From Rhizaria sp. SCN 62-66 (taxonomy: Eukaryota): a stretch of DNA of 44,370 bases. The stretch lies in assembly GCA_001724265.1 (NCBI GenBank), contig MEDY01000254.1:1-44370 (forward strand). Direction: 5' to 3'. This document shows, piece by piece, positions 2,779 to 44,100 of this stretch (position 1 is the first letter of the stretch; each line of letters opens with the position of its first letter). The notes under the pieces are model-generated. The model was not told where the DNA came from and did no database searches. It saw nothing but the letters and a program-made list of their open reading frames with translations. A program made the position numbers and the translations under genes.

Positions 2779-3540
2779 TTAGAGCTCGGACTTAAGATCG
2801 CCCGCGGCGGCCGCGGCGGCGAGCGCGGCCTCGGTGGTGGCGGCGTCGGGCGTGGGGGTGCCGGGGGTCGCCGGCGAGGCCGCGCCGGTGAGGGCGGCGT
2901 CGGCGGCGTCGGCGGGCGCGATCTGCTCGGGCGTGAGGTCGGGGACCGGGAACGAGCGCGCGGTCTCGGCGTCGGTCAAGCCCTCCTGCAGCGTGACGAC
3001 GCGCTTGGGGTGGTAGAGGTTCGAGCGGGGCACGTTGAAGCGGCGCAGCAGGTCGACGATATCGTCCTCGGAGGTCTCCCACGAGAAGAGGACCTCGACG
3101 TTGGTGTGCTTGGGGTCGTAGAAGTTGGGGTCCTGCTCGAGGTTAGTCAGCATCTCCATAATGTGGTCCTTGCTCATCGTGTAGTCGATGACGAAGTCGT
3201 CGTAGTCCTTCTTGTCGGTGAAGAAGTGCACGCGCGGGGTCCCGCCCGCGAGCTTGGTCACCAGGGTCGGGTAGTACGGCGCGTGCTCGTGCACGAAGAT
3301 GCGCGCGCCGGGGAACTTCTTGCGCAGCTTGCATGAGTCCTCGGCGAGCATAAGCACGTAGGGGAACTCCACGCCCGCGGGGGGCTGCACGGCGCGAACG
3401 GCCTCGGCAGTGGTGGGGTCCACCTCGTCTGCGTCGTAGTCGTCGGACTCCTCCATCGATGGCTGCGCGGAGGCAAAGAAAGCGGGGGCGAAACTCATCA
3501 GGACAACACTCAGCGCAAACAGCAAGGTAGCCAAACGCAT
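2779..3540 (-). CDS. Sep15/SelM-family thioredoxin-like ER protein, Cys-containing homologue (253 aa)
   Basis: Hydrophobic signal peptide (MRLATLLFALSVVLMSFAPAFFASAQ). EDSCKLRKKFPGARIFVHEHAPYYPTLVTKLAGGTPRVHFF parallels the SelM/SelF core. C-terminal KSEL is a KDEL-like retrieval signal directly before TAA. Confidence 0.65.
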   Translation of the reverse strand: MRLATLLFALSVVLMSFAPAFFASAQPSMEESDDYDADEVDPTTAEAVRAVQPPAGVEFPYVLMLAEDSCKLRKKFPGARIFVHEHAPYYPTLVTKLAGGTPRVHFFTDKKDYDDFVIDYTMSKDHIMEMLTNLEQDPNFYDPKHTNVEVLFSWETSEDDIVDLLRRFNVPRSNLYHPKRVVTLQEGLTDAETARSFPVPDLTPEQIAPADAADAALTGAASPATPGTPTPDAATTEAALAAAAAAGDLKSEL

Positions 3541-4032
3541 AAATCAACCTGTGACAGAAAACAAATGGCGAAATAATGAGTGTGGAAGCGGGAATGGTGA
3601 GGATTTAAACGCAAGATACTTTTGCTGAGGTGGCAATCATGCTCCGTGAGAAACCGGCGATTTATGCACATAATAATGGAGTTTAGCTGTGTTTTAAATT
3701 AAAAACATAAGTAACAACATCTTGGGTACATTCTTTTAAATATGAAACCCTCTATTCTCTGTTGTTCGAGGCTCAAAAGTAGTTTTTGGAAACGCATTTC
3801 GGCCTTTTACTCCTCGTCTCCTGTCTGCCCCGAACCTTCTGCCCCTAGGGTCAACGCAAATATGAGTGCACTGGTATATTTAATCTATCAAATGTAAATA
3901 TTGAACAATGACATTTAATCTTTCAAACACATTCAGTCTTGCAAACATTTGTATTAAAATCAAAAATACGGAGGTAGTGCGTAATAAAGTTAGGTCATAA
4001 TCTTACCAATCCATATCGTCAAAACTCACACA

Positions 4033-7000: not shown

Positions 7001-10000
7001 GCACCGGTGCGTGGTGTCATGTTTAGTACGGCTTCAACTGCAGCAGCAGTTGCTGGCGCGCCCTCGCCGCAACGCCGCAACGCAGCAAGCAGCTCAGCTC
7101 CGCGGCCAGGCGCGGGCGGCGGTACTGGGGACGCTGCGGGCCGCGCGCGCAGGCGGCGGAGGGCGGCGTTTGCGGCTCGGGCAGCGTCAGTATACTGTGC
7201 GAGTCCGGCTGTGGCAACCCACGCTAACGGCGGCCAACCATTGGGCGCCTCCCACTGTAACTCTGACGCAGCAGCAACGGTGGAAACCGTGCTAGGTGCT
7301 ACTGAGTTCTCAACAGAGTCCATGTTTGCGTTCTCTGTGCTTGCACGGCGCGAATACTGCGGCGCAACACCGGCAGCAGCGCGCGCAAATGCTTCTGCCT
7401 CTGTGCGCATGCGCGCGCGCTGTTCACAACGAAGACGAGCAACAAGTCCTGACGGCGGTGTCCAAGTGGCCGCAAAGCCGCCTCGGTGCAGGAAGCGTTC
7501 GAACAGCACGCCGGTCACGCGCTGTGCCTGCGCCGGCGAGGCAACACGCGTGAAAAGCGGAAACGCTCCCGCCAGCGTCCACACATGCGTGCGGCGGCGG
7601 CGAGTGCGGAGATCAAAATCGAAGTAGTATCCCAGCAGTGGGTCCCACATGTACGTGTTGATGAGCCGCGCACGTGCTGCAGCAGCACGCCGTGCCTCAG
7701 CTGCGCCGTCTATTAGCGCGTCACGCGGGTCCGCGTCCAGTGCGCCAGGACTGCGTCGATGCTCACCTTTTGTTGGTGGAGCGCTTGCCTGGGCGCTGGA
7801 GTTAGCGCTTGCGTTGCTAGAATTAGCAGCTGCAAATGTTGCTCCAGCAGAGTCAAGACGCGCATGCAACGCATGAACAGCGGCTGCAGCAGCTACGACA
7901 CCAGCGCGGTCGATGACTTTCTCCGTGTCAGCAACGAGCCGCGTAAAGGTTGAGCCTGCGTCAAGAAAGGCCGCCAGCACATCCATCTCGAGAGTTAACA
8001 CGTGGAACTGTGTGCTGGCCGTCTCAGCCAGTGCTGCGTAAGCCAGTTCCGTTGCATACAACAAGCAGTTGAGATCGACCGGTAACACGCTCGAGGTTTC
8101 CAGATCAGCCAGCGTCGCGTTGGTACCAATTTTTTCAAGATCACTTTTTGCAGCAGCAACTTCTGTTGCAAGTGTGTCTGGCGACGGAGCGTCTAGCGGG
8201 GGTGCTGGTCGCAACGGGGCAGCGGGAAACCAGCGCGAACTAAAATCCCAGCCAGACTCGCACGCAGCGCGTGTGTTTGCGTACAGTGCCGCGCGCCGCC
8301 TGGCGTCGAAGCTCGGACCGTTTTCCGTCGCCTTTGCGGTTGCAGCAGAGGGGTAACCTGGAGGGTATGAAAGAGCATCGTTTAAGTAACGCAACGGTGC
8401 ATCGTCACTCGATTTGTGCGTTGTGCTAGCGCCTGCAGCAACATTAGTGTCAGCGTTAACATCTATGTTTTCTTTGTTGTCAGCGGTGTGAAATGGCGGA
8501 AGCTCCCCGCTCCACAGTCCTGCAAGCGCGCGCAGCTCCGCGTGAATGCGATCCGCAACACCGCGGCGCAGCGCGCAGGCAACATCGGCGCCCCAGCTCT
8601 CCGGTCGCGGGCTCGACGGCACAGCATCATCCCAGTACCTATTCAGTATACCGTACCGCACGCGCCGCCCTGCGCGCCGGCGCAACGCGTGAGCCACTGA
8701 CGCCGCCACTGCCTCAGAATCTGCGTGATTTTCTTTGCCACCCTTAATTGCAGCCGTAGCATTAGCAGAGGCTGCGTTGCGGCGAGCGCGAAAGGTGTCT
8801 GTCCAGTGGTGTGTAAGGCGTGCGTCAATGTCAGTAATACACACCGCGCGCGAGCTAGCCCAGTATGCGCCCATCTTAACTTCGCGCGACGCTATGCTTT
8901 GTCCGCCGGCCCCCGTTGCTGCACTTGCCTCAGTTGCCCACGCGCTTAAGTTGGCACGGTCACTTATGCCGCCGGCTGCTTGCCGTGCCGGATGCGGAAC
9001 TATTGGTGCGGGTGTCGCCATGAGAGTGTCAACAACATCGATATGCAGCGACGGGCACAGATCTGACACATTAGGCAAGCGCCAATGCGACGACGAAATG
9101 CGCGCACGTCGACGTTGCGACGCAGTCTTTTTAGTTTTTGCCGTAGTGCACTAGTCACACAGTTGAGGCGCCCGGCTGTGCTCTGCATCGACCACTGCGT
9201 TTACTGTTGCGACAGCCTCTGCGGGTGTGAGCGCGCACTTTGTCACTGCAAATACAGCATGCTCCAACTTGTGTGAGTGTTGCGTCTGCCCAGTCTTCCC
9301 AGCTGTAGCCGGGTGATGGCCACCCTTCCTATGCTCATCAAGCGTGCAGCGCACAAACGGGTTCTCGTTTGACCGTGGAGCTGTAAAATCAAGGACAAGC
9401 GGGCCGCGTGCGTGCTCATTGCCGCGCAGTGCGCAGATTGCCGCGTCGGGCACACCGGGCCCCACAGCCGCGCTGCAGTTAGAGCACCGCACGCGAGCTG
9501 CAGCAGCACGCTCGTAATAGTCGCGTGGCACGCTGATTACGGGTTCATCAAGCTCGCGTGTCATGCGCAATCGCATGGCACGTGAACTCCTCTCATTGAT
9601 GTTGTTTGTATCGCTTTCACTGTTTGTATCAGAGTCAGGGTCAGAGTCAGAGAGCCAGGTGTCGTCTTCTGAGGGTGGGTCTAATGGCAGTAATACGGCA
9701 CGGCGGAAACCCACTGTAGGAAGCACAAACCGCAACTCGTACTTGCTCTCATGTACCTCACTATTGTTTGCGCTGTTCTTTTTTATGTGTACGCGTGAGC
9801 CTGAACGACGAACCCATACTGGCGCAAGCCTTGTTGCGTCCTGCAGCGCACCTGTAAAAACCGTGCCAATTAGGCGGTCTGCGCCCTGTGTCCAAAAGGT
9901 TCCCTCCATGGCAGCAGCCAGCACGCCAACTTCGGCCACTGTATGCGCAGACGCGTGTTGGCCGAGCAGCTGTAACAGTAACGCCAGCACAGGCGGCTGT

Positions 10001-13000
10001 GAGCGAGTCAGGTAGTACGTGCGGTTTGCCGTCGGTGCAAAGCCGCGTGTGCGCAATAGCTGTGCTATGCAGTCAGCTACGTTGCGAGCCGCCGCTAGTG
10101 ACTCCTTGCGTTCGCGTGCAAGCAGGCCAAGACACGCAAAATAACTGTCCCAGTAATACATCTCGTGGAAGCGACCGCCGGGCACTGCAGGAAATCATGC
10201 AAAACAAGTTTGAGATCATACTCACATATGTGAGTTTAATATTTTCCAAATAAAAAAAGATGAGATAGAAATATAACGTTAAACAATTGAGTGTAGTGAA
10301 AACTATCATCATATTTTGATGTGGATGCGTTTGCGTACCAATGTAAGGCCGAGCAAGTGGAAATAACGACCCACGCTGAAGCTGCCGTGCACTTTCTCGC
10401 GCAGCTGTAGCGCCACCACTTGCTTCGAGCGCGCGTTCCCATGCACCAGGCTTATCTGCATGTGTGCTCGCACCCACACTGGCTGCGCTAATGTGCTATT
10501 CTGTGGTCTGGTCAACCTCACTTTCGTGGCTCTCCTTACTTGTGGACTTTAGGCCACGTGCGGCATGTCCCGGCGGCGGAGGCATCCCCAGATGTGCAAC
10601 AGGATCAAGATCAACTCGCTTAGTCACTCCGACGCCAGACTCAGCGTCGATGTCCATCTCTGCCTCACTCTCAATCAGGCGGGGACTTTGCGCTGCGGGG
10701 CGCACAGTCCAGTGCGCGCGCAGCAGCTGTCGCATCCGTCCTTCGCGCGCCAGCGGCGACCGCGGGGGCGCACGCATCAACGCCTGCAGGCCGCCAGCAG
10801 CTGCCGCCACGTCCGCGTCCTCTTCAGCTTCAGCCGCGACATCCGCGTCAGCCTCTGCCAGTGAGCTGTTCGCGGGCACCGCTCTGGTCGCTATGACCGA
10901 GGCGGGAGTCGAGGTCGTGAGGTGCAATGGCGGGGCTGAAGGTGCGCGCCGCGGAGATGGAGATGGCAGCGGTAGCAAACCGAACATTGACGCCGCACTC
11001 TTGCTGCTAGTAACGCCAGTGCTTGGACGAGCAACACCGCCGCGCTCTGCCAGTGCAGCGCGCACGTATGCTCGCGGCTTGCCATGGCCGGTGCGCTGCG
11101 TCTGCTCTTGTTCAAGCTTTAACTGTTGTGACTTTTGCACTGCTTCATTCTCAATCTCGCGCAAATTTGGGTGTGCATGTAACGGAGGCAGTGGTGGTAG
11201 CTGCGGCTTTGCGGTGCGCTGAGCCGGGGTTTGTCCTTGTTCTGGGATCTGAGACTGCGCTAGAGCTTGTGGGTGCGTCTGTGCTTGGCTTGGCGCATGT
11301 GTTCCGCTGCTGGTACTGTCACCTGTACTATGAACATGTACATGCCCCACCACAGGCTCAGGGCACTTGAAAAGAGGGTTGGCCAATGGCAGCGGCGCAG
11401 GCGCAGTTGTAGGCGCGCAAGCCAACTCGAGCGTGTCTGCAGCCTCTGTTGACTCATGCGCACTGCTGCTGCTGCTGTGAGGACGATCTGAGCTGCGCGA
11501 GCGCACCAAGTAAACCGGCGCTTCTACCGTCGTGGCCGCCGTTGTCACAGCATCAGAGTCAGCTGCGACACCCTCGTCAACATCAATGGCCGTCTCAGCG
11601 TCCTGTGCAGCGCTTGCAAGAGCGCGCACCGCCGTGTCGTAGCGCGCATCAGCGCGTTTTGCGCTCTCCGCCGCGATTACCGCGTCGGTGCCTACGTCTG
11701 TGCCTGTCTGAGGCCTGTGTGCTGCGTCGTGCGCAGCTGCTGCGACCGCAGACGAGCGCGAGAGCGAGTGCCAGAGGGACTGGGCGAGCGACGGCCGCCG
11801 CGACAGTGAGACCACAGGCGACCGAGACAGTGACCGCGACCGGGACCGGGACCGCGACCGCGATTCTCCGCGTGACTGCGAGCGCGATTGCAGACGCGAG
11901 TGTGACGGCGAGTGCGCAATCGGCGAGTGCAGCGGCGACGCAGACGGAGAGGACAGCTCCGACTCCGACTGTGACGCAGAGTCGGACTCGGACTCGGACG
12001 GCGATGGCAGTGTTGACTCACCGTGAGCACTTACAGCGCCTGCAGGCTTGCGATTGCCTGCGTTTACGTCAACGCTTGCTGCGCAAATACCAAGACGCGG
12101 GTCAAGTTCAAACGCGCGCGCGCACGCCTTTGCGTCTGCAGCGGCCGCGCGCGCTGCACTTTCGGCGTCTTCGCCTGGCGCCAGACCCGCGGCGCGCTGA
12201 AGCACGCGCGCACAGGCCAGCGCCGACGGAGACCGCGACCGCGACCGTGGACGCGGCTGCGCTGGTGTTCGTGACTGTGGTTGCGAATGCGCTTTTGAGC
12301 CGTTTGTGTGCGTTTGCGTCTGCGCGCGTGCGTCTGGAGGCAGCTCGTACGGCGCAAAGGCGTTTGCGAGCAACCGCGCTCGCAGTCGCGCTTTGGCAGT
12401 GTCTGGCGCTAGGGCAGATGCGGGCGCAACGCGAGCGCATTCTTTGCCGCGCTCCGCCCTGATGCGCGCGCACACAGGCCCTTCGACACCGTCGTCGCAT
12501 GCAAGTGCAGCCTCGTCCTCGTCCTCTTCAAGTGCGCACACCGGCAGGGAGCCATCACCGCTATCCTCACCGTGACCGCTTACTGTCACAGATGTGTTTG
12601 CGCTCGCGCTGCCGCCGAAATCTGCGCGCTGCGTGTAGGTAAGAAAGCGCTCGCCGCGCGGGTTGCGCGAGAGGCGCGCCCACATGAACTCGACGTGGTC
12701 CGCCATCCCGGGCAGCGCAGGCGCTAAGTCACCTGCGTCGTCGCCCTCTTCCGTGGTGAAATGCGCAAACGCAAAGCGACGCAGCGGTCCGCGTAGACGC
12801 GCACAGAGAGCGCGGGCGCGGCGCAGCACTTCGGATGCGGCGGAGGCACTTGCAGAGTCGCCGAGACCAGAGTCGCTTGAGCAGTCTGTGTCAGCAGCTG
12901 TAGTGCTGTTTGCATTGTCAGCAGGCAACAGTGAGTGAGAAAAAACCGATTTCGCGTGCATTAGAGAGCTCTTTATGGAATTGCTGCTTTTGCCGTTGCT

Positions 13001-13385: not shown

Positions 13386-13418
<33 letters not shown>

Positions 13419-13615: not shown

Positions 13616-14391
13616 CCACACCTTAACAAAATGCTGAGACAAACGTTTGGAATAGTTCAGTAGGAGAATCAAAGATAAATTAGTGGGGCAAATATAGGGC
13701 CCACTTGAAGAGTTGTTGGGACTTCAGATATTTTGATGTAAAGTGGGGACACGCGAAGAGGGAATCTCACAGTCCCTTGATCTGCCGAATTGATTCTCAG
13801 AAAAGCGCATACTGATACACCATCAAATTCATCTGACACATAATTAACGGTTTCAAATATTCTGATTTTGTCAATATCCTCTTTGTAGCTGCAAATACAT
13901 TTATAATGTTCCTATGACTCACTATGCAGTGTTAATCGGCATGACGACAGCAGCCTCCCGTTCCACCACAGTGCCAGTCCAGCGGCCAAGTCAGCAAATC
14001 ATGAATTCGCCCTATGTGAAGGCTATCGCTTCCTATAGAAACAACTATTTTGATATAATCTTGCCAGATTTTATTTATATCCGTTTTCAACAGTCAGGTT
14101 GCTGTCGACGGATTTTGACTGCACGAATCGCCTCTTTTAAATGGCGTCGGTCTACCAAGCTGACTTCAGAAGATTCTTGTTTCGCCCATATACCCATCAA
14201 GATAACTACTTTACCGGAAATTGTGGGTATATATGTGCTCTATGCTTACTCCGATGCCTCAAAGCGCACTCTATTTCTCTTTTTTTATTTTCTTTAGTGA
14301 CTTTGCCGCGAGGTCGCTCCACCTCGACTGGCTCCTCGAGCACGTGCAACTCGACTTGGTTTCTCTGGTGCGGCTCAAGGCTGCTAACACA

Positions 14392-30600: not shown

Positions 30601-30815
30601 TGTTCATGGACAACGCTGGTGGCGCCTGGGACAACGCCAAGAAGCTCATCGAGAGTGAGGGGCTCAAGGGTACCGACCAGCATAAGGCCGCCGTCACGGG
30701 CGACACGGTCGGCGACCCGTTCAAGGACACCGCGGGCCCCTCGCTGCACGTCATCATCACCACCATGTCCATGACCGTGCTCGTGCTCGGTCCCATGTTC
30801 CTCGGCGCCATCTGA
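27654..30815 (+). CDS. Membrane-bound H+-translocating pyrophosphatase, K+-independent (type II, AVP2/VHP2-like); ~1,050 aa
   Basis: GGGIYTKAADVGADMCGKIE..IPEDDARNPAVIADLVGDNVGDCAGSMADVFES; FGPIADNAGGIVEM; LDSVGNVTKA (Lys at the K+-independence position); NAGGAWDNAKKLIE; HKAAVTGDTVGDPFKDTAGPS. Many transmembrane helices. Ends in TGA. The first in-frame ATG follows a possible acceptor at 27642. Confidence 0.95.
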   Translation: MIGTGYAPFDPQNQQKSGFAPPPAATNPFQPRGPAAPSAPLAGFPAPGAAFPMPGMPAPAAAPAAAAGGAAASPVNPYLNTGALPPMPAFAAPAPAPYTAGAPYGAPAAPYGASAPYTLPGQPPAAPAPLPQQKPLPPSYQMPSQQPPQQYPQQQHQQQAVSPTAGVVHALSAAAATGGGVYATSYAAPDLHARSNSGHSTGHTASGAASPLGAGFLAGYTGGAGSGTGGASGQSSPFARSHADPLPGLGSPAELAQAYSGGAGGVTAGHSNNDARQARAETAEAKRVFTAAVGGALAVAAVAALWAMASLGFNSVYLVLTLAVVAGSLVYVLDVFRWAMAFESYHPAMRTVAEAIKEGSEGYLTTQYTAIGRVAVAVASGLALLYLFRTNPFEGEVPATLLALCIGVSFLLGAACSAAAGYIGVWISVRVNVRVAVAASRYSYGDALLLCFRGGAVSSALSAQLCILGVAVLYLLANTAFAQWFGIPPQHVPTLLAGYGFGAAFVALFMQLGGGIYTKAADVGADMCGKIEANIPEDDARNPAVIADLVGDNVGDCAGSMADVFESISAEIIGTMLLGATLVTDAFKHAPASATAALLPGAADTALHRYILFPLAVHAVNLLVSAVGIASVKVKGSEDALVPMQAGYALSSGLAAVLFSLISYLMLDVPVAPGAWWRFALCGIIGLATSFLLIAATQYYTDSKHAPVRRIAAASTSGHGTNVIAGISVGLESCLLPALVITTALLSSYGLGYGSGLPPVQAGIYGAAIATMGMLSTAVYVLAMNNFGPIADNAGGIVEMSGSAAAVREITDRLDSVGNVTKAASKGYAVGGSALACFVLFQAYLDELAIITKMPIIVNLARVECMCAGILAIAMIFVFAGWSMDAVSTTAQQVVHEVRRQFATRPGIMDGSQRPDYARCVTVVTEASLRQMGKPAALALLSPIVVGLVFKAVGAYIGAPLLAVEVLATFLLFGTLTGLLMAVFMDNAGGAWDNAKKLIESEGLKGTDQHKAAVTGDTVGDPFKDTAGPSLHVIITTMSMTVLVLGPMFLGAI

Positions 30816-31236: not shown

Positions 31237-34200
31237 TTACACGGTGATCGAAGTGACCTTGTCCTGAGCCATATTGTCCAGGTTCGCAAGCACGATCTGG
31301 CCGTCAAGCAGCGCAACCAGGTCGTCCTCGCGCGCCACGCGCTCCAGCTCGCTGGCCGTGGCCATGCGCGGCGCGGGCGGCACCAGCGCGCTGCGGTTGG
31401 CGAGCACCTCGCGCACGACCGCGCGCGCGCCGCCGACGGAGCACGCCAGCGTCGCGCAAGGCAGCAGCGTCGCGCGCACCCACGGGCCCACGGTCGCCGC
31501 GCCGGCGCCGGCGGCCGCGGTCTCCGCGCGGGCGGCGGCGGTGGCCACGGCGCTGTGGGGCACCGCACTCGCGTACAACACGGTCGCGGTCACCAGGTCA
31601 ACCGGCGCAGCGCTCGCACTGCCGTTCGCAGTGGCACCGGGCCACTGAGCGCCGGCGCAGGTGACAGCGTCGGCGGCCACACGCGCGAGCAACCACCAGG
31701 CCAGCGCAAGCACATCCGACGCCGCGCCAGAGCTCGCAACAGCGCCGGCGCGCGCGAGCACGGTGACCTGGATGGAGCAGAGCGCGCGGGGCAGCGCGAG
31801 TGCGCGCGCGGTAACGAGCAGCGGGCCCGCGCACGAGGGCAGCACGGCGGCGAGCGCGGCGGCGCGGCGCGGCGCGGCGGCGGCCACGGCGACTTGCACG
31901 GCGGCGGGGACCTGAAACTCCCACAGCGCCTCGCGTGGCAGCGCGGCCACGGGCACGACCAGCAGCGGCGCGTGCGCCGTCAGCCGCGACGCCACGCGAT
32001 GCGACGACCGCACCACGATCGCAGCGGCACCGTCCGTCTGGCTCTCAGGCGCAGACGCAGAATGGAGAGCGGCATCTGCGAGCGCGAAGTCGGCTGCGAG
32101 CGCGGCGCCAAAGGGGAAGAAGAGCGCGGTCTCGTCCGTGTCTCGCGCAGCGGGCGAGTCCTGCTCCGGGTCATCCTCCTCCTCCGCCGCAGCGGCCGCG
32201 GCGGCAGCACCCTTGCGCACGAGCCGTCCGTTGCGTCCGAACTCGAACAGGTCCTCCTCGACCTCCTCGTCCTCGGCGCCGTCAACGGCGGCGCTGCCGG
32301 ACTTGCGTGCGCGCGGGAAAACGCGGCCCGTGCGCGCGTCGCCCGCCGCGCCGCTTGCGTCGCCCAGCAGCAGCCGCGCGGCCGAGTGCAGCTCCTCCGC
32401 CGCGCACGGCGCGTCCTCCGCGTCTTCCTCCGGCTCACAGTCACCCGCATTCTCATCCTGCTCTTCGTCGTCGTCGGCATCGCGGACCTTGCTGGCGCGG
32501 GCAGCGGCGCGCATCGTCAACGCAAGCGCGCGGGCCGCGGGCGCGGGCTGGAGCAGCGCGGGCTGCGCGAGCGCGGCCTCCGCGACAAAAAGCAGCCCGG
32601 CGACGCAGCCGTTGCGCAGCGGGCCGCGCAGCGCGCCGCGGGCGACGGCGTGCGTGTGCTGCGCGGCGAGCAGCAGCTGCGCCAGCGCCGCGGGCTCCAG
32701 CGCCATCTCGGCCGCGCGCAGCCCGATCTGGCCGGCCAGGAAGCACAGCGCGCCCGCGGCCGTGCCCTGCGCGTAGGGCCCGATGTTGGCCGGCGCCCAG
32801 GCCGAGCGCGACTGCACGTGCAGGTAGGACGCGCCCGCAGCTGCGCGCCCGCGGGCGAGCAGCGCGCTGCCAGCAACACAGCTGCTGCTGCTACTGCTCG
32901 TGTTATCGCAGCTCTGCTGCTGCAGCTGCTGCAGATGCGCAGTATTGTTCTTGTTGGCGTCCACGAAGCCCTCGAGGCTCCACGGACCGTGTGGCAGCCC
33001 GTCCTCGGCGGAGGCGGCGGGCGGAGTGCGGTCGGCGGCGCTGGCTTCGGCGCGCGCGAGCCCAACGCAGGCGCGCGCGGGCGGGCCGCCGCCGAAGAAG
33101 CGTGCGTAATGCCTGTTGGCCGCCGCGAAGCCCGATTCGGCGCCCGCGGCGGGCGCGCGCAGGGCCGCGGCGGGCAGGTACAGCGACGTCGCCACGGTGC
33201 GCACGGCAGCGTCCACAGCCTCGCTTGCACTATCGGTCGCCGAGGCGGCAGAAGTGACTGTGGCGGCCGGGGGCAGTGAGGGCGCGACGAGCGCGTGCGT
33301 GATGTGCGCGACGGCCTCGGCGCTGGCCGCGGCGGCGGCGGAACGCACCGCAGGCAGCTGCCACGCGGAGACGACGCCGGTGCACTCAAGCTGCGCGTCC
33401 GCGCGCACGGCGAAGCGCGGCAGCAATTGCACAGAAGCGGCAGCCTTTTCAGTCGCCGTAGACGCGAGAGCGGGCAGAAGCGCGCGCTCGGCCGCCAGCG
33501 CCGGGGCCAGCTCGCTCTGGACCTCGTCAGCGTCAGGAGCAGTGACTGGCTCTTCCGGTTGCTGCTGAGCTGCAGCAGCGGTGGTGGTGTTCTCGGGCCA
33601 GCCGAGCGCGGCCGCAGCGGTGACGTCCTGCTCCGAGAGCGGCTCGACGCGCCAGCGCACTGGCACCGCGCGCCAGATGTCGTCGCGCGTGGAGCCGACG
33701 ATGTTCCACTCGTCGACGACGAGGCGGCCGCGCGCGAAGAGCCGCGGGCAGAAGAGCGTGAAGGTCTCGTACTCGCCGCCCTCACCGCACACGCTGACGC
33801 CGATCTCGTCGTTGAGCGCCTCCAGCTCGGGCCGCAGGTCGCCCAGCTCGCGCGTCATGTGTTTCTGCGTGAGGCCGTAGGCGGCGACCTTGACGAGCAC
33901 GGCGCGCAGCCCGCTGGCGACAATCCGCGCGAGCAGCGGGCGCTGCGGCTGCTGCCAGAGGAAGGCCAGCGGCACGAGCCCCAGGCGCGCGCACACGAAC
34001 TCGACGCGCGCGCGCTGGTAGGTCGACAGCACGGCGCCGCACGAGACGGCTTGCACGTCGGGCTGTGCAGCGAGCACGGCGCGCAGCAGCAGCTCCAGGT
34101 CCTCGATCTCGTCCTCCAGCGCGGCTGACAGCGACTACGACGCTGTGCTGTCGGCGGCGGCGGAGGCAGAGGCGGCGCTCGCGTGGGTCGTCGAGGCGGC

Positions 34201-34677
34201 GTCGGACTCAACGGTCTGAGACTGTGGCGGCGGGTGTGACCTGTGGCTGCTGCTGTTGTCGCCGTCGAGCGGGGGCAATGCAACGGCGCCCGTGGCGGCA
34301 AGCTCGCGCGTGGCGGGCGCGGGGACGCGGTAGTAGAAGAGCGAGCGGTTGGCCGAGGCGCCGGCGATGACGCGCTTGTAGAGCGGGACGCCGACGCACT
34401 CGGCGAGCGAATCGACGAGCTGGTGCCCCACCGTCTGGAACATGAACGAGTTCAGCCCCATCGACGCCGACGGCGGCGGCTGCAAGTTCGCCAGAGCGAC
34501 AACCTAAACAGATCAGGATCAAAGATTTGAAAGAAGATTATGAGCTCCAGTGCATATATGAAGCTAAAAGAAAGGAAGAGTGGGTGAAGATAGTCGTACC
34601 TCATGGCCATGACGCATGCATTCAAGCAAGTTGAAGCAGCTGTCCTTGCCACCACTGATCAAGCCGACAACTTTCAT
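31237..34677 (-). CDS. DPH6: Diphthine--ammonia ligase with C-terminal YjgF/RidA-like domains; ~1,114 aa; exons 34677-34600 and 34503-31237; internal TAG at 34137-34135
   Basis: MKVVGLISGGKDSCFNL..GHE|VVALANL; SFMFQTVGH; DEIEDLELLL; GAVLSTYQRARVEFVCARLGLVPLAFLWQ; VCGEGGEYETFTL; YjgF-like segments GPPARACV, LHVQSRSAWAPANIGPYAQ and LPREALWE. Ends in TAA. Confidence 0.93.
34504..34599 (-). other. Intron in DPH6 (96 nt, phase 0)
   Basis: GTACGA...GTTTAG. Removal gives the conserved GHEVVALANL. Confidence 0.9.
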
Positions 34678-35209: not shown

Positions 35210-38200
35210 ATGCGCCCGACCGCTCTGGCCCGGGGGGATGATCCTCTCTCTCTGATGGCGAACGACCGTCTCCAGCAGCAGCAACAGCAGCAACAGCAGC
35301 AGCAGCAGCAGCAGCAGTGCGCATACGGGTCGCTGCCCGGCAGCATGGTCGCCGCCCCGGGCGCGCAGACGCCCAACACCACCGCGGGCGCGCCGCCCCA
35401 GTTTGCGACGGCGCAGCCGAAGCTGTCCGTGCCTCCCCTGGGCCTGCGCCCCGCGGCTGGCGAGGCCGCGCCGATCCGCCCGCTCTACTCGTCGACGCAG
35501 TACGCGCCGGGCTCCAACGCGCTGCCGGGACTCTCTGCCGCCGCCGTCGCAGGGGTCGCACCGATTCAGTCGCGCGTGAGCCTGCTCGCCTCGGGCAGCC
35601 GCGGCCCGGGGCTGAGCGCGGCGGGCGACGCCTCCCCTACGGTAGGCTCGCCGCCCTCCGTGACCGAAGACGGCGTGCTGGACCTCCGCGCCGCTGAGCG
35701 CGCGCTCGAGCAGCGCAAACTTGCGCAGCAGCAGCAGGCGCAGAGCAACGCCGCGACCGGAGGGTCAGGCTCCGGCGGTGCGGGCTCCGGCGGCAGCGTG
35801 GGCCAGCAGCAGCAGTACCCCGCGCCCCTGCAAACGGACCCGGTGCCCTTCTCGCTCTACCCCGTCCCCGCGGCGCTGCAGACCTACTATGCGGACGACT
35901 CCGAGGGGCCCGCGGCGGTGGCGGGCGAGCAGCGCGTGCTGCACCTGCACCGCATCCACCACGTGGCGCTGGCGTCGGGCCGCGAGACGCTGGGCGACCT
36001 TATCGCGACCTCGTACCAGCTCGTCTTCGTACCGTACAAGGAGCAGCCACCCACGGTGCGCGGCGGCGTGCAGATGTACCCCATGTCGCGCACGGTTTCG
36101 ATCCCGCTCAACAACATCGAGGCCTGGGTGATCGACAAAAAGTCGGCACGGCCCGTCGCGCGCGTCGGCGAGGCCGCCATGTGCGTCGACATCCTCGGCA
36201 AAGACGCGCGCCACATCCGCATCGGCTTCGAGTCGGCGCAGGACGCGCAGTCGGCCACGGCCACCATCATGGCTTACATGTATCCCACTAGCACGCGCTT
36301 CCTCTTCCCGTCCTGCCTGCGCGCGCCCCCGCCCGCGGCGCCTGCGCACCTCGACGGGTGGAAGCTCTTCAGCCCCGCGGGCGAGTTCGCGCGCATGGGG
36401 CTGCCCAACAAGGCCTTCGCCGTGGGGCCCTACAACGCCGACTACGCGCTCTGCAGCACGTACCCCGAGGTGCTGTGCGTGCCCGCCGAGGACGTGCTGT
36501 CACCCGCGCAGCTCGCGGCCTCGGCCAAATTCCGCTCGCGCCAGCGCCTGCCCGTGCTGGTGTGGAAAAACCCCCATGGGTACCAGACCATCTGGCGCTG
36601 CTCGCAGCCGCGCATCGGGCTTGTCTCGTCGCGCTGCGCGGAGGATGAGGCGCTGCTAGACTACGTGACCAAGAGCAACAAGTGGGCCGAGGCCACGGTG
36701 ATCTTCGACGCGCGGCCACGCATGAACGCCGTGGGCAATCAGATCGCGGGCAAGGGCGTCGAGTCTGAGTCGACGTACACGACGTGCCGCGTGCGCTTCA
36801 TGGACATCCACAACATCCACGCCGTGCGCGACAGCTACAAAAAGCTCTGGCGCGCCGTTCTCTACGCCAAGACGGAGCTGCAGTATCTCACCGAGGTCGC
36901 GCAGTCTGGCTGGTTCGCGCACATGACGTCGATCCTCTCGGCCGTGCATCAGATGGTGGCATGCATCGACCGCGAGCAGCAGTCGGTCGTCACGCACTGC
37001 TCTGACGGCTGGGACCGCACCTCACAGCTCACGGCGCTGACGAAGCTCTGCGTGGACCCCTACTACCGCACCACGCGCGGCTTCATGGTGCTCGTCGAGC
37101 AGGAGTGGCTATCCTTCGGGCACAAGTTCTACGAACGCATGGGCCACGGCGTGCGCGAGCTCCACGACCAGCGCTCGCCGGTCTTCATCCAGTTCCTGGA
37201 CTGCGTGTACCAGTTGACGCGCCAGTTCCCGCGCCACTTTGAGTTCACCAGCGAGTTCCTCGCCCAGGTCGCCGTGCACAGCTACTCGTGCCGCTTCGGC
37301 ACCTTCCTGTGCAACTCCGAGGCCGAGCGGCGCCAGGCCAAGCTCGCCGAGACCACGCCCTCGCTGTGGACGTTCCTTCTGTGCTCGCCGCAGGCCGTGG
37401 CGGGCCATCTCACCAACGCCGCGTTCTCGCCCAGCGGCCGCGGTGACAACGTCGGCATCAACGAGGCCTGGCCCGTGCCGCTGCCCATGGGCTCCTTCCT
37501 CGCCTCCGCCGCCGCCGCTGCTGCGAATGCTGCGCCCGCTGTTGCTGCAGTGGCTGCGGCCCCTGTCGTGGACGAGAACGACTCGATCGCCCAGCTCCCC
37601 GCGCCCACCATCCCCGCCGACGCAGACTCTGCCGACGCCAACGCTGGCGCTAACACTGACTCAAACGCTGTCGAACCGACCAAGTCTGCCGCCAGCTCCG
37701 CTCCCGCGACCCCGGATGTCGTCGTCGACTCCAGCGCCGTTGCCACCATTAGTGCCAGCGCCAGCGCCAGCTCTGCCGAGAGCGCCGACGCTGACGCCGA
37801 CGCCGACACGGAGGGCAAGAGCCCCGAGACGGCGGTGTCCGACTGCGCGCTGTCATGCAGCGAGTCGCAGCACCTGGTGGCCGTGACGGGCCCCGGCGGT
37901 GTGGCCGGGCTCATGACGCCGCCGCCCGGGCTGCTCGGCGCCGGACACTGCGGCGGCGACGCGCTCGCGCTCGCACTCGCTTCCCCCGCCATCAACGCCA
38001 GCGCCAGCGCTAGCGCCGAGGCGGAGGCGGAGGCGGAGGCGGCGACGGCGGCGAGCGATGCCGCTGAGAAGGCTGACGAGCAGGAGCAGAATGCCGACTC
38101 CTCTGCCCCTGCTGCTGCAGCTGCGCCCGTGACGGCTGCGGCCGCGCTCGCCGCCGCGGCTGCGTCTGCGTCGTCGCCGTCTCCCGTCGTCTCCCCCGTC

Positions 38201-38653
38201 CCCGCGCCGACGACCCCGTTCGCGCCCGCGGCCACCGCAGCGGCAGCCGCCGCACCGGAGCCGGCCAAGGGTCTGTTTCCGCGCCTGCTGGGCGACGCCT
38301 ACACCCACCCTCTCTCGCGCGGCACTGTACTCTACCCGTGCGTCTCCCCACGCGCGCTGGCCGTGTGGCCCGAGTTTTGGCTGCGCTTCCAGAAGGAGGA
38401 CGCGGCGCTGCTCGGCGGCGGGCCCGGCGCGGTTTTCCCGGGCGGCGGCGCCACGTGTGCGTCGCTGCTCGACACGCGCGCGCGCGTCGCCAACGCGCAT
38501 CTGCACTGGGCGCGCTCCGTCGCCAGCGAGGCCAAGGCCGAGGCCGTGGGCGCGCAACAGGAGCTCGCCCGTGTCAGCGCCGAGCTGGCCGAGAGGGACC
38601 GAGAGGTCGAGCGCCTCCGCGCCGCGCTGCTCGCCGCCGGCATCCAGCCTTGA
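35210..38653 (+). CDS. Myotubularin-family phosphoinositide 3-phosphatase, catalytically intact; ~1,147 aa
   Basis: PH-GRAM-like region (GDLIATSYQLVF...DILGKDARHIRIGF); GWKLF; NADYALCSTYP; FRSRQRLPVL; RCSQP; DARPRMNA..N..GKGVE; NIHAVRDS; active site HCSDGWDRT; DPYYRTTRGF..LVEQEWLSFGHKF; SPVFIQFLDCVYQL; FGTFLCNSE; C-terminal coiled coil. Start is ATG 35210 or 35255. Ends in TGA. Confidence 0.95.
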   Translation: MRPTALARGDDPLSLMANDRLQQQQQQQQQQQQQQQCAYGSLPGSMVAAPGAQTPNTTAGAPPQFATAQPKLSVPPLGLRPAAGEAAPIRPLYSSTQYAPGSNALPGLSAAAVAGVAPIQSRVSLLASGSRGPGLSAAGDASPTVGSPPSVTEDGVLDLRAAERALEQRKLAQQQQAQSNAATGGSGSGGAGSGGSVGQQQQYPAPLQTDPVPFSLYPVPAALQTYYADDSEGPAAVAGEQRVLHLHRIHHVALASGRETLGDLIATSYQLVFVPYKEQPPTVRGGVQMYPMSRTVSIPLNNIEAWVIDKKSARPVARVGEAAMCVDILGKDARHIRIGFESAQDAQSATATIMAYMYPTSTRFLFPSCLRAPPPAAPAHLDGWKLFSPAGEFARMGLPNKAFAVGPYNADYALCSTYPEVLCVPAEDVLSPAQLAASAKFRSRQRLPVLVWKNPHGYQTIWRCSQPRIGLVSSRCAEDEALLDYVTKSNKWAEATVIFDARPRMNAVGNQIAGKGVESESTYTTCRVRFMDIHNIHAVRDSYKKLWRAVLYAKTELQYLTEVAQSGWFAHMTSILSAVHQMVACIDREQQSVVTHCSDGWDRTSQLTALTKLCVDPYYRTTRGFMVLVEQEWLSFGHKFYERMGHGVRELHDQRSPVFIQFLDCVYQLTRQFPRHFEFTSEFLAQVAVHSYSCRFGTFLCNSEAERRQAKLAETTPSLWTFLLCSPQAVAGHLTNAAFSPSGRGDNVGINEAWPVPLPMGSFLASAAAAAANAAPAVAAVAAAPVVDENDSIAQLPAPTIPADADSADANAGANTDSNAVEPTKSAASSAPATPDVVVDSSAVATISASASASSAESADADADADTEGKSPETAVSDCALSCSESQHLVAVTGPGGVAGLMTPPPGLLGAGHCGGDALALALASPAINASASASAEAEAEAEAATAASDAAEKADEQEQNADSSAPAAAAAPVTAAAALAAAAASASSPSPVVSPVPAPTTPFAPAATAAAAAAPEPAKGLFPRLLGDAYTHPLSRGTVLYPCVSPRALAVWPEFWLRFQKEDAALLGGGPGAVFPGGGATCASLLDTRARVANAHLHWARSVASEAKAEAVGAQQELARVSAELAERDREVERLRAALLAAGIQP
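35273..35317 (+). repeat. Coding CAG/CAA repeat (Q15) in the myotubularin N-terminus
   Basis: 15 consecutive CAR codons, none of them TAG. Confidence 0.9.
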
Positions 38654-39139: not shown

Positions 39140-42100
39140 TCAGCGGACGAACTTCTTGTTCTTGTCCGCGGCCTTGAGCTTGGCGACCATGCTCGAGATG
39201 TCGCTCTTGTCCTCGGCAGCGCTCGTCGCCTTACTCACCGCCGCGCCGGGGGCCTTCGCCGCGTTGGACGCCAGCTTGCTCTTGCGCTCAGCCAGTGCGA
39301 GCTCCTGCTCCTTGGCGCGCTCGCGGCGGCGGCGCTGCGCCTCGGCCAGCAGCTCCTCGGCGCCCTGCGTGGCCTTAAAGCCCGTTGCTGTGGGGTCGAT
39401 CGCGAACGCAGGGTCCTCAAACACGGCCGCGAAACGGTCGTCCTTGACGTTGACGCGGAAGCCCTCGTCGTCGCCGCCCACGGACACGCCCGCGGCGGCC
39501 GCCTTGCGCGCGCGCTTGACGCGCTGGCTCATGTCGATCTCCTCGTCGTCGTCGCTGCCCGACTCGGCGGCGGCGACGGCCGCGGCAGCCTTCTTGACGC
39601 GGAGCGCCTCGGCGATGAGCGCGTCCTCGCGGTCACGGTTGCGAACGACCTTCTTGGCCTCAGCCTTCTTCTTGTCGCGCTGCTCCTTGAGCAGCGCCTT
39701 GAGCGAGTAGCCGCCGCGGCGCGCGTCGGCAGCGTCCGAGTTCTCGCCAGAGTCGGAGCCGTCCGAGGCGCCAGCCATCATCTCCAGCCGCGCGCGGTCC
39801 GCCTCGCGCTTCTTCTTGGCCGCATCCTTGGCGCCCTTGCCGCCGGCGTCACTGTCGTCGCCGGAGGATGACGAGGCCCCGGCGTCGGCGAAGGTCGCGC
39901 GCTTGCCGCCCTTGCCCTTCTTGCCATCCTTGCCGTCGGTGTCGCCATCCTTCTTGCGCGGGTCGACGTAGTTCCCGTCCTTGAAGGCGTCCTTGAAGAA
40001 CTCGTCGTTGGGGTCATAGTCGATCGCGTCGTCGTCGTACAGCGAGTTGGACTCGTGGCGCTTGCGCACCGCCGCAGCGCTACCGCTGCCGCCGCCGTCC
40101 TCGTCGTCGTCGTCGTCGCTGCCGCCACCACGGCGCGCGCCACCGCGGGGCGTCTTGAGGTAGATGGCACCCTGGCGACGCTGCGCGTCCTCGGCAGCGG
40201 CCTTCTCCTTGCCGCGCTTGATGGCTGCCTTCTTCTTCTCCTTCTTCTTGTCCAGGAAGGCCTGCCACTGCGACTTGGCCTCGCTCTGCTGCGTCGCGCG
40301 GTCCTTGTTGCCCGCGTTGGCGGCGATGCGCTCCGCCGCCATCATCAGTGCCGGCTGGAACACGATCTCGGCGCCGTCAGACTCGGACTCGGACGCCGAC
40401 TCGGTCTCCTCGCTGTCCTCGTCGCTGTCATCGCTGTCATCGTCGCTGCCGCGCGCGAGCGCCTTGTTGGCCTTCTTGATGGTGGCCGCGCGGAGCTTGT
40501 CCTTCTCGCTGCGGCCGCCGCGCACGTCGTCGAGCAGCGCCGCAAACGAGGCGCGCGCGCGCCGCTTGAGCAGCACCGTCTTCTTCTTCTTCGGCTTCAG
40601 CCCGCCCTCGCCGTCGGCATCGCTGTCACTGTCGTCGGTGTCGCTACCTTTGTTCCCCGTGCCGAGCTTGCCGCCCTTCTTGCCGGCCTTCTTGGCGGCC
40701 TTGGCGTCGGAGTCCTCCGAGTCGGACGAGGTGTCGGCGTCGTAGTCGGTCACGGGCACGTCGGTGCCCTCGGCCTCCTCGTCGACGTCAGAGGCCATGA
40801 ACACGTCCAGGTCGGCGGCGTCGTAGTCGGCCTTGGTGAAGGCGCGGCGCAGCTGCTTCGCGCGGCGCGGGTCTTCGCGGTCCCACGTGCACTGCACGCG
40901 GCTGTGCTGCAGCGCCGTCGTAGCGAAGGATGGCGCCATGTAGCCCACAGGCAGCTTGGTCGCGTCGTCGCGCAGGTCCGCCTCGTCGAAGGCGTGCTCC
41001 TTAGGCACGAAGCGCATGTCGATGATGTTGGCGGACCGCATGAACTCGAGTCCGTCGGCCTCGCGGTATACGTGGAGAGCCGTCGCCGCAGAGTCAAAGG
41101 TGCACACGGCGAAGAAGTAGCGCAGCTTGCGCAGCTCGTAAGCGCGCAGCTTGGCCTGGTCGATAGACTCGTCGCCCTCCTCGCGGTCCTGTTGCAGCGC
41201 CAGCGCGTCCTCGTCAGAGTCGACGTCGTCATCCTCGTCCTCGTCCTCCATCGCAGCACCGGCGGCAGCGGCGTCGTCGTCGTCGCCGCCGTTGGCGTCG
41301 GCGACGCGGCGCAGCTCGCGCTCAACCTCGTCGTCGTCGATCTCGGAGCCGATGTCGTCCTCCTCCTCGTCCTCGTCGTCGTCGTCGCTGTCGTCGCTGC
41401 TGTCGCCGCCGGCGGCCTTCTTCTTCTGCTGCTTGGCGGCCTTAGCCTTGGCCTTGGCCTCGGCCTTGGCGTCGGCGGCGGCCGCGGCGGCGGCCTCGGC
41501 GGCCTCGCGAGCCTGCGCCTTCATGAGGCGCTTGTGCACCTTGCTGTCGCCCTTCTTCTCGCCGTCACCGTCCACGGCGGCCACGGCGGCGGCGGCGGGG
41601 GGGGAAGGCGTGGGCGCGGCGGTGGCGGACTTGGAGAAGAGCCCCGAGGGCCCGAAGCGCGCCTCGTGCGCCATATGCTCCTTGCCGAACTGCGACGCGT
41701 ACACGGCGACGCGCTCCACGCGGCCGTTGGCGGGCAAGAACGAGGCGACCACGGCCAGGAGATCGGTCGCGCGCAGCTGCTCCCACTCGAGGTTCACCAG
41801 CGCGAGCCGCGGCGTGGGCTCCGAGGTCACGCCCGCGGAGGCGCCCGCGATGCCGCCGTGCAGCGTGTCGCCGTCGCCCGCCGCGTCGTCCGAGTCCTCG
41901 GAGTCCGCGGAGTCTGAGGCGGCGTCGGAGATGTCGCCGTCGGTGCCAATGTCGGTCGAGTCGGAGCCGATGTCGGTCGAGTCCTCCTTCTGCTCCTCGT
42001 CGTCATCCTCACTGTCAGTCTCGGCCTTCTTGGAAGACTTGGAGGACTTGGCGACAGTCTATTTGTCGGACTTGGCGGTAGCGGGCTTGGCGGACTTGGT

Positions 42101-42361: not shown

Positions 42362-42735
42362 GTCCTTCTGTCAAAGCACGCAGCGTGAGAGAAAAGAAAG
42401 GGTTCACCGGAGCATAAGAAAGCAGGATTTCAGGTGAGTAAAAAAATAAAAACAATACAAAACTAGAAGAAATCCCAAAAAACCCAATTATAGAGTCAAT
42501 GTACGATTGTAGATAAAGATATCTGCATTTTCCGTGAGGCACTTTTTCTGTTTCGAGAGGCTCGGTCGGTCAGGTTCGTGAAAATGGGCAAAATTGCTTT
42601 CCGCTCTCGCCCAGTCACGAAAAGTAACGGTAAGAGGTCGTTTTGTTGAGGCTAAAAAGCACTGCAACAGACTGTTCGTTCCGCTTTTGACAGCACTTTA
42701 AAGAGGAAACTTTTAGTTTTGTAACTAGTCACATC

Positions 42736-44004
42736 ATGTCTGGCCGCAACCAGTATGGCGCCCAGTCCCAGCAGGACAACGAGTCGATCTACTCGCTGAT
42801 CAGTCGTCCTGAGGAAGTCCAAGCCCGCCCGGCGATGTACCGGAGCCGCTACCCGCCCACGGCACCCCCCACGGCGTCCACTTTCCGCCAGGGCCCCACC
42901 TCACAAGCCCAAATCAGCAACATCGCCGGCGACTACGACGACCAGGAGGCCCACAAGCGCACTGGCGCCCTCTTCGGCCCCAAGGAGTCGGTGCAGCCCG
43001 ACCCGTCCTCCTACCTCAAGAAGGGCACCCGCACCCTCTCTCTGCAGAAGAGCGCCGCCAAAGGTATGTTCTAGACCTTGCTTAGTTTATTCCCCTCTTC
43101 TTCTCTTTCTTCTCTCGTCTCTTCTGGCAAGCCTTATGGCTTGCGAGGTGTCCAAGCACCGTTTCACTTCTTGCTCTATCTTATCTTGTTGTTTCTCGCT
43201 CTGTCGTCCGCGGTCCGCTTGCTTCTTCGCGACATGCGTCTTCTCAATGTTATTTGGCTCTGCTTCTTACCTCCTTGTCCGCTTGCTTTTGCATTCTCGC
43301 TTCTTCTACTCTTTCCTGCCACGCCCAACAAACTTCACATCTCGCCTGCTCTACACTGCTCAACACTGCTCTCCGCACCCCTCACAGCGTCTCTGCAGCA
43401 GTCATCGTTCCACTACGAAGACCGCCGCAAGGAGATGGTCGACCTGACGCCCAACGCCGCCGCCGCGGCCGCCGCCGCCAAGGCTGCGCAGGGCCACACG
43501 GGCTCCCGTGGCCAGCCCCGCAACTTCATCGCCGAAAACACGCTGCGCGCGGTCAAGCTGCGCCCGCCGGCGCCCGTGGTGCGCGAGGCCGACGTCGACT
43601 ACACCAAGAAGGCGACGTTCGGCAAGGTGCCCGCGTACCTGGACACGGTGCGCGACAACATCGCGCGCGAGAAGGAGTACATCGCCCACATGATGGCCAC
43701 GCGCGCGTCTGCGCAGCACGCCGCCACGCAGCGCCAGGCTCCGCAGGTCGTGCCCATGCCCGAGGAGGAGCGCCAAGCGCTGTTGGCCGACCTCAAGCGC
43801 AAGTGGGAGCAAGTCAACACGCAGTACCAGCGCATGACGCACATCGTGAACCTCGACACCACGGGCAAGGTGCGCCGCAAGGAGGAGTGCGAGCAGCAGC
43901 TGCAGCAGCTTGAGAAGAGCATCGAGAAGCTCTCTAAGCGCAACGTCTACGTTGCCGCGGACGACTACGGCTACCAACAGCAGCAACAGTTCCAGTCCTA
44001 CTAA
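42736..44004 (+). CDS. ENKUR: Enkurin, an axonemal protein; ~314 aa; exons 42736-43063 and 43388-44004
   Basis: ESIYSLI..E......MYRSRY; FGP.....PDPSSYLKKG; RNFIAEN; YTKKATFGKVPAYL; EEERQALLADLKRKWEQVNTQYQ; DTTGKVRRKEECEQQLQQLEKSIEKL. Ends in TAA. Confidence 0.88.
43064..43387 (+). other. Intron in the enkurin gene (324 nt, phase 1)
   Basis: GTATGT...TCACAG and pyrimidine-rich. This acceptor keeps the frame, whereas the two CAG sites just downstream are the wrong phase. Confidence 0.85.
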
Positions 44005-44072
44005 GCAAGCGTCCGCATTAGAAGCAATGCTTCGATATGCTGACTGGCAGGCAAACTTCACTGGTAACTAGC

Positions 44073-44100
44073 TCTCTCTCTCTCTTCCTCTCTCTCTCTC
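44073..44100. repeat. Interrupted (CT)n microsatellite downstream of enkurin
   Basis: ctctctctctctcttcctctctctctctc. Confidence 0.8.

Follow-up and report, generated by a model that had tools for sequence, protein, structure and literature searches.

In-frame UAG and terminal UAA: a probable split nuclear code on a contig from a GC-rich eukaryote

The stretch of DNA analysed here, referred to throughout as the window, is 44,370 nucleotides in length. It comes from a GC-rich eukaryote and carries ten of its nuclear genes, with a coding GC3 of approximately 0.9. Seven of the ten genes end in TGA, three in TAA and none in TAG, and the reading of the genetic code presented below was drawn from these ten genes, a small sample of approximately 12,500 codons. 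The introns recognised in the window are rich in AT or CT and their codon scores are strongly negative, in contrast to the surroundings of the in-frame TAGs described below. No tRNA genes were found within the window and an Rfam search of the window yielded no matches. Three genes that terminate with TGA are located as follows.

14233-20367, plus strand: class-3 lipase gene, TGA stop.
27654-30815, plus strand: H+-pyrophosphatase (H+-PPase) gene, TGA stop; used as a control terminator and as a marker for placement of the organism.
35210-38653, plus strand: myotubularin-like phosphatase gene, TGA stop, with no internal TAG.

The TAG-TGA at 15685-15690 of the class-3 lipase gene is intronic. In the H+-PPase gene, the Pfam H_PPase match extends to the end of the profile (position 645 of 645) and stops eight residues ahead of the TGA. 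The three genes that end in TAA do so at these positions.

2779-2781, minus strand: TAA terminator of the gene (3540-2779) for a secreted protein of Sep15/SelM-like type, whose sequence ends ...GDLKSEL.
31237-31239, minus strand: TAA terminator of DPH6 (diphthine-ammonia ligase; gene 34677-31237, with a 96-nt intron at 34599-34504).
44002-44004, plus strand: TAA terminator of the enkurin gene (gene 42736-44004, with an intron at 43064-43387).

These coordinates, as reported in the first-pass annotation, were found to be right, and each TAA closes a long GC3-rich frame. The same annotation had described a loss of GC-rich codon usage at the TAA of DPH6 and enkurin; the loss is in fact seen in all three genes, where GC3 falls from 0.80-1.00 before the TAA to 0.33-0.73 in the 15 codons after it and the codon score passes from positive to negative. 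The extension from each TAA to the next TGA was ranked by codon score, in bits, against windows of the same length inside coding regions, a null distribution in which the 1492 codons of the score's own training set are included. The 29-codon extension of the Sep15-like gene scored -28.2 bits, with only 0.03% of 9038 coding windows as low or lower, and the 12-codon extension of enkurin scored -17.2 bits, with only 0.11% of 9225 coding windows as low or lower. The 59-codon extension of DPH6 (GC3 0.41) scored -116.2 bits, below all 8708 coding windows. The next TGA had been placed 13-31 codons past the TAA, a range that holds for the Sep15-like gene (30) and enkurin (13) but not for DPH6 (60), in which two TAGs, at +33 and +53, lie downstream of the TAA and before that TGA. 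In the enkurin gene, 20 residues separate the end of the Pfam Enkurin domain from the TAA.

The motif KSEL had been reported directly before the TAA of the Sep15/SelM-like gene, and comparison with a homologue bears this out as a protein end. A single homologue, P0010, was obtained among 5.8 billion clustered proteins; it is 52% identical to the window protein and stops at the same point with KTEL. The two proteins share the K[ST]EL ending, though the 60-residue linker preceding it is non-alignable. This ending would be a candidate ER retrieval signal of the KDEL type. KDEL-like ends of ER-localised human proteins include KTEL, QSEL and RTEL, while KSEL occurs nowhere in the main text of the same report (PMC2140024). 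The N-terminus of the window protein is hydrophobic, with a Kyte-Doolittle mean of 2.04 for residues 3-24 vs -0.38 for the rest, and the 253-aa product ending at the TAA has been recorded from 3 contigs.

The name given to this protein, SelM-like, fared less well and is weakly supported: no family profile matched at its cut-off, and what stands in favour of the name is a match below that cut-off together with leads from the ESM Atlas. A Pfam search with the window protein yielded no match at E<=1, and P0010 scored 19.8 bits against Sep15_SelM (PF08806), under the curated cut-off of 26. Sep15_SelM clusters were nearest to the window protein in the ESM Atlas, with a score of 0.84 that is a lead only by the tool's own grading, and one structural row gave a TM of 0.79 by row and 0.32 by query, likewise a lead only. 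The Sep15/SelM redox family is marked by a CxxC or CxxU motif. Neither form of the motif is present in the aligned stretch of the window protein and P0010, which reads EDSCKL in both, with a single Cys. An AlphaFold model built from the two-row alignment had a mean pLDDT of 37, too poor to use, and a profile search of the genome contigs with the Sep15-like alignment gave no match.

Six TAG codons lie in frame within five of the genes.

2059-2061, plus strand: in-frame TAG in ORF1 (670-2238), with the TGA stop 59 codons on.
9151-9153, minus strand: in-frame TAG in the downstream part of the trehalase gene, within an open frame of 2053 codons that has Pfam matches to Trehalase.
10496-10498, minus strand: in-frame TAG in the upstream part of the trehalase gene; the ...SLFPLARPYI segment, which leads up to an intron, follows approximately 50 codons later.
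26558-26560, plus strand: in-frame TAG in ORF5 (20726-26845), with the TGA stop 95 codons on.
34135-34137, minus strand: in-frame TAG in DPH6, at a loop of the diphthamide synthase domain that has conserved blocks on either side; GC3 0.83 before and 0.87 after.
42059-42061, minus strand: in-frame TAG in ESF1 (gene 42361-39140, TGA stop); GC3 0.87 before and 0.83 after.

When GC3 was taken over 30 codons on each side, four of the TAGs had values of at least 0.83 both before and after. That of ORF5 is flanked by a GC3 of 0.93 on both sides, with codon scores of 1.64 before and 1.12 after, and that of ORF1 is the weakest of the four, with GC3 of 0.87 before and 0.83 after and a codon score after the TAG of 0.27. 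The two TAGs of the trehalase gene offer weaker support owing to the weak codon bias of that gene. The high-GC3 genes contain four TAGs in 9346 codons and the trehalase gene two in 3146, an overall rate of approximately 0.5 per 1000, and none of the six sites falls on a conserved residue. A six-frame scan for stops with coding-grade scores on both sides returned six TAGs, one TAA and four TGAs, of which three TAGs, the sole TAA and all four TGAs are antisense to genes. Since the antisense shadow frames of GC-rich DNA confound such a scan, it is usable only in gene frames, where the stops with coding sequence on both sides are the three TAGs of ORF5, DPH6 and ESF1, with no TAA and no TGA.

Conserved protein parts flank the TAGs of DPH6 and ESF1. 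The DPH6 codon is preceded by the conserved motif FMFQTVGH and followed by DE[VI]EDL, one Pfam domain spanning both, and the coding sequence around the ESF1 codon is uninterrupted, with the N-terminal region upstream and RRM_ESF1 and NUC153 downstream in the same frame. A gene caller using the standard code had broken DPH6 at the TAG into two proteins, P0147 and P0001, each recorded from 5 contigs, which shows that the break is no one-off assembly error. No close relative of DPH6 was found among the best 150 of 2522 matches in a search of 1.84 billion representatives; beyond its own two fragments, the nearest relatives among those 150 were P0002 and P0140, at 37% identity. The C-termini of DPH6 orthologues were compared in an alignment of eight sequences, the tails of which are not conserved, and the comparison is therefore uninformative on the TAA.

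No internal TAA occurs in the gene frames over the approximately 12,500 codons. This absence carries no weight, because the GC3 bias leaves just 1.41 internal TAAs expected if the codon were synonymous with TAG, for which P(0)=0.24. The base after the stop codon was also compared: a purine follows nine of the ten terminators (TAA 3/3, TGA 6/7) vs two of the six in-frame TAGs (Fisher p=0.036), the other four having a pyrimidine at +4. A pyrimidine after a stop codon is a context that favours read-through.

The collapse of coding signal at the three TAAs, the K[ST]EL end kept in the homologue and the purine-following context support UAA as a true terminator in these three genes. UAG is supported as a sense codon in the window, not a terminator, since TAG ends none of the ten genes and sits inside coding sequence, with conserved protein parts on either side in DPH6 and ESF1. 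TAA ends genes where the coding signal stops and TAG lies inside coding sequence; the two codons are therefore read differently, and the first-pass inference that UAG and UAA are uncoupled holds in the window in both its halves.

The affinity of the organism was approached through the H+-PPase. In a single-gene tree the window sequence groups with rhizarian sequences, which points to Rhizaria on the strength of one protein. An H+-PPase that is 80% identical to that of the window, P0012, was used to scan metagenomes; of the 80 loci returned, the best reached 49% identity and none lay on the contig of P0012, and hence no syntenic relative was obtained. Aphelids had been entertained as a source on the idea that Amoeboaphelidium is a UAG case; this was rejected, the literature giving UAR = Gln for it and the H+-PPase leading to Rhizaria.

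Split nuclear codes for UAG and UAA were believed nonexistent until 2017 and are now described from a handful of lineages (PMC5304391; PMC11687900). The rhizarian exLh (Sainouroidea), as described by Panek et al. in 2017, reads UAG as Leu and stops at UAA and UGA (PMC5304391). The window resembles exLh in the sense use of UAG and in termination at UAA and UGA, and the grouping of its H+-PPase with rhizarians is a further likeness. The two differ in extent, the same account giving 384 in-frame UAGs in 71 genes of exLh whereas the window has six in ten genes, and in stop usage, with 56 UAA vs 15 UGA in exLh (PMC5304391) and seven TGA vs three TAA in the ten genes of the window, where coding GC3 is near 0.9. 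In Iotanema spirale UAG is given as Gln and accounts for approximately 8% of Gln codons, with UAA as the main stop (PMC5304391); the reassignment of UAG only and the low use of UAG are shared with the window, but Iotanema is a metamonad, and the main stop of the window is TGA. Also described are UAG = Ser in Scotinosphaera, UAG = Gln or Leu in Protocruzia tuzeti and phyllopharyngean ciliates, and one ciliate in which UAA = Lys and UAG = Glu (McGowan et al. 2024, PMC11687900). Codes of the Scotinosphaera and Protocruzia type belong, in that account, to green algae or ciliates, from which the window differs in gene structure and in the affinity of its H+-PPase. A literature search for cercozoan or rhizarian UAG codes found none besides that of exLh among the papers it covered.

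We consider it likely that the organism uses a split nuclear code, with UAA and UGA as its stop codons and an amino acid assigned to UAG. Termination at TAG may instead be leaky, short of full reassignment, a possibility that arises from the rarity of TAG and from the pyrimidine that follows four of the six. The same two features, six TAGs in some 12,500 codons and a read-through context at four of them, would also suit an organism with the standard code, in which TAA is a normal stop and the in-frame TAGs represent missed introns, read-through, RNA-edited sites, pseudogene lesions or errors; that no TAG falls on a conserved residue fits this as well. Such an organism would, however, have accumulated six premature stops among ten neighbouring genes, all of them TAG and none of them TGA or TAA, and would end no gene in TAG despite a GC-rich genome. 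The surroundings of the TAGs are unlike the recognised introns, and the break in DPH6 is seen on 5 contigs, all of which makes the standard code decidedly unlikely. The UAR = Gln code of ciliates, hexamitids and ulvophytes (NCBI table 6) shares with the window a sense TAG, but has TGA as its sole stop, and the three proteins would then extend past their TAAs to the next TGA. The lack of internal TAA could be explained under an ordinary UAR code by GC bias alone, and GC3 is still 0.73 over the 15 codons past the Sep15-like TAA. The three extensions are nonetheless non-coding in composition (-28, -116 and -17 bits, with a GC3 of 0.41 in DPH6), the K[ST]EL motif would become internal although P0010 ends exactly there, and the purine after all three TAAs matches that after six of the seven TGA stops. 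We find this explanation barely credible.

A code with a sense UAG and a UAA that usually terminates, yet carries a position-dependent sense meaning in some genes, would be of the kind described for Blastocrithidia nonstop, where UAR = Glu, UGA = Trp and UAA also serves as stop (PMC12153298, PMC12152300). Such dual use of UAA is thus already in print, and termination at UAA despite a sense UAG is a likeness to the window, with which a rare sense TAA is also compatible at an expectation of 1.41. Set against this, the gene frames hold no internal TAA, and UGA, a sense codon in the published description of Blastocrithidia that leaves UAA as the sole terminator, ends seven of the ten window genes. 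We regard an ambiguous UAA as unlikely. The split code, with UAG alone reassigned, is a kind of code already known from exLh, Iotanema and some ciliates, and the organism of the window is probably a further case of it. More tentatively, it could be an undescribed GC-rich lineage of rhizarian affinity in which the reassignment of UAG arose independently of that in the AT-biased rhizarian exLh, with an amino acid possibly beyond Leu, Gln or Ser; the first-pass remark that the window cannot distinguish a known lineage from a new case stands.

By analogy with the known biology of such codes, UAG would be read by a tRNA with anticodon CUA or by an efficient near-cognate tRNA, and eRF1 would have lost or weakened its recognition of G at the third position of the codon while keeping that of UAA and UGA. 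Each added case of a split code helps to show how eRF1 ignores UAG yet keeps UAA. The choice of code also matters for annotation, since standard-code callers split genes at TAG, as in the recording of DPH6 as two proteins, and a ciliate-type table applied to this organism would wrongly extend the genes that end in TAA. On the more tentative reading of an independent reassignment, the low use of UAG, at approximately 0.5 per 1000 codons, would mark codon capture at an early or weakly used stage, with UAA and UGA both retained as stops. A GC-rich genome with very rare UAG would give a useful view of early reassignment.

The window is GC-rich eukaryotic nuclear DNA, with G+C at third codon positions (GC3) of approximately 0.92 in Pfam-supported coding stretches against an intergenic G+C of 0.41. 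Once TAG is read through, ten genes with few introns are resolved across the whole window:

670-2238, plus strand: ORF1
3540-2779, minus strand: Sep15/SelM-like, putatively secreted protein (Sep15-like)
13615-4033, minus strand: giant trehalase
about 14233-20367, plus strand: class-3 lipase
20726-26845, plus strand: ORF5
27654-30815, plus strand: H+-pyrophosphatase (H+-PPase)
34677-31237, minus strand: DPH6
35210-38653, plus strand: myotubularin-like phosphatase
42361-39140, minus strand: ESF1
42736-44004, plus strand: enkurin

No tRNA genes or Rfam matches were found in the window. ORF5 (2039 codons, alanine-rich, without a Pfam family) carries ten copies of the motif [ST]GD[VIL][DES][VLT], spaced roughly 100-150 residues apart. 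The trehalase gene, of approximately 3150 codons, has very large inserts separating its Trehalase Pfam segments. With a GC3 of 0.57 and a negative codon score it stands apart from its nine neighbours, all of which have GC3 values of 0.77-0.92. Two introns apparently flank a mini-exon at approximately 15520-15600 in the lipase gene (15383-15840, plus), the mini-exon lying in a different frame. Exon 1 of DPH6 (34600-34677, minus; 26 codons, MKVVGLISGGKDS...) uses codons far less GC3-rich than the rest of the gene.

Seven of the ten genes end in TGA, three in TAA and none in TAG. Reading of the Sep15-like, DPH6 and enkurin frames bore out the TAA ends that the first-pass annotation had identified at 2781-2779, 31239-31237 and 44002-44004, respectively. 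That annotation had placed the next in-frame TGA 13-31 codons downstream; this holds for Sep15-like (30) and enkurin (13) and fails for DPH6 (60). A log-odds codon score was trained with 1492 Pfam-supported codons as the coding set and intergenic trinucleotides as the background. In 15-codon blocks, scores upstream of each TAA were positive (0.5 to 2.2 per codon). Past the TAA they became immediately negative in DPH6 and enkurin, in agreement with the earlier claim that TAA coincides there with loss of the coding signature; in Sep15-like this followed one ambiguous block, a pattern also seen past the H+-PPase TGA. The extensions from TAA to TGA scored -28.2 bits in Sep15-like (29 codons), -116.2 bits in DPH6 (59 codons) and -17.2 bits in enkurin (12 codons), values equalled or undercut by 0.03% of 9038, 0 of 8708 and 0.11% of 9225 coding windows of the same length, respectively. 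These comprised all such windows inside high-GC3 coding regions, the training stretches included, which somewhat flatters the contrast. A purine directly follows nine of the ten terminators, all three TAAs among them, compared with two of six in-frame TAGs (Fisher p=0.036). This base is G after six terminators, usually as GCN, and a pyrimidine after four of the six TAGs. A (TC)n-rich tract lies at approximately 44070-44110 (plus), soon past the enkurin stop.

The Sep15-like protein has a hydrophobic N-terminus, as is typical for a secretory leader, and ends in KSEL. Retrieval signals of the KDEL type function only at the C-terminus, and translation beyond this TAA would therefore abolish the putative signal. 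Its only homologue in the clustered protein collection, the metagenome protein P0010 (52% identity over the domain), ends in KTEL at exactly the same point; the Ala/Gly-rich linker of P0010 could not be aligned, and the terminal match persists regardless. Judged by sequence comparison, the KTEL end lends independent support to TAA as the end of the Sep15-like protein. Raykhel et al. 2007 (PMC2140024) list KTEL, QSEL and RTEL among the KDEL-like C-termini of human proteins located in the ER; KSEL is absent from the main text of that paper. Orthologue tails were unhelpful for DPH6, as its C-terminal third is unconserved in an alignment of eight sequences.

In-frame TAGs with a GC3 of at least 0.83 in the 30 codons on each side occur in ORF1 (2059), ORF5 (26558), DPH6 (34137) and ESF1 (42061); the trehalase gene, with its weak codon bias, holds another two. 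The ESF1 TAG is embedded in a continuous stretch of coding text, with the N-terminal region upstream and the RRM_ESF1 and NUC153 domains downstream, and that of DPH6 occupies a loop flanked on either side by a conserved block of the same domain. A standard-code gene caller had split DPH6 at this TAG into proteins of 108 and 946 residues, each recorded from five contigs, so the codon is not a single-assembly error. Of the remaining TAGs in long frames, one is the DPH6 intron splice acceptor and one each falls in an intron of enkurin and of the lipase, the second lipase intron containing an in-frame TAG-TGA pair (15685-15690). Three others precede start codons, one upstream of ORF5 and two upstream of the H+-PPase gene. 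The introns that were recognised are rich in AT or CT and have codon scores far below zero, in contrast to the surroundings of the four TAGs. A six-frame scan, its counts limited to gene frames on account of antisense shadow frames, yielded three TAGs, no TAA and no TGA with coding-grade flanks. Close relatives of the TAG-bearing genes were sought and none recovered, and none of the TAG sites coincided with a conserved alignment column.

These data support termination at TAA and the absence of termination at TAG. The proposal that UAA is still a stop, uncoupled from UAG, is upheld by the drop in coding score past TAA, the K[ST]EL end and the purine after the stop. No internal in-frame TAA occurs in the window genes, an absence without weight, since synonymy of TAA with TAG would predict only 1.41 of them (0.35 + 1.06; P(0)=0.24); the expectation derives from the A-ending to G-ending ratios of two-fold purine pairs, 0.087 across the nine genes of high GC3 and 0.53 for trehalase. 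Occasional sense reading of a mostly terminating TAA, a dual use reported for Blastocrithidia, accordingly keeps a low probability here. The rarity of TAG and the frequent pyrimidine after it leave some room for leaky termination in place of full reassignment.

Comparison of the H+-PPase identified a metagenome relative, P0012, at 80% identity; the next-best named relatives were all rhizarian at approximately 58-62% (Mataza, five foraminifera, Lapot, a Bigelowiella/Norrisiella cluster and Plasmodiophora). In a 42-row tree the window H+-PPase and P0012 paired with an SH-aLRT of 100, nested in a 27-row clade (SH-aLRT 99) with every named rhizarian, Percolomonas and one crustacean-labelled record. 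Being drawn from a single gene, the apparent rhizarian affinity offers a lead but falls short of placing the organism. The nearest named matches of DPH6, a chytrid and green algae, were uninformative on affinity. A Pro/Ala/Gln-rich N-terminal extension of approximately 330 residues (27654-28634, plus) precedes the H+-PPase Pfam domain, and P0012 carries a comparable one. Two records of the window H+-PPase, P0011 and P0304, differ between assemblies by one residue (His or Tyr), which suggests allelic or strain variation.

The first codes known to reassign UAG alone and retain UAA and UGA as stops were reported in 2017, from Iotanema spirale (UAG = Gln) and the rhizarian exLh, which is associated with insects (UAG = Leu) (PMC5304391). 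Phyllopharyngean ciliates, Scotinosphaera and Protocruzia tuzeti have been added since (PMC11687900). Within the literature covered, full-text searches found no rhizarian or cercozoan UAG case besides exLh. The probable code of the window, with UAG as sense and UAA and UGA as stops, works like the codes above. It differs from exLh in UAG usage (six in ten genes, against 384 in 71 genes) and in its main stop, mostly TGA where exLh has mostly UAA (PMC5304391). As codes of this type are already known, the window most likely represents one further example of them.
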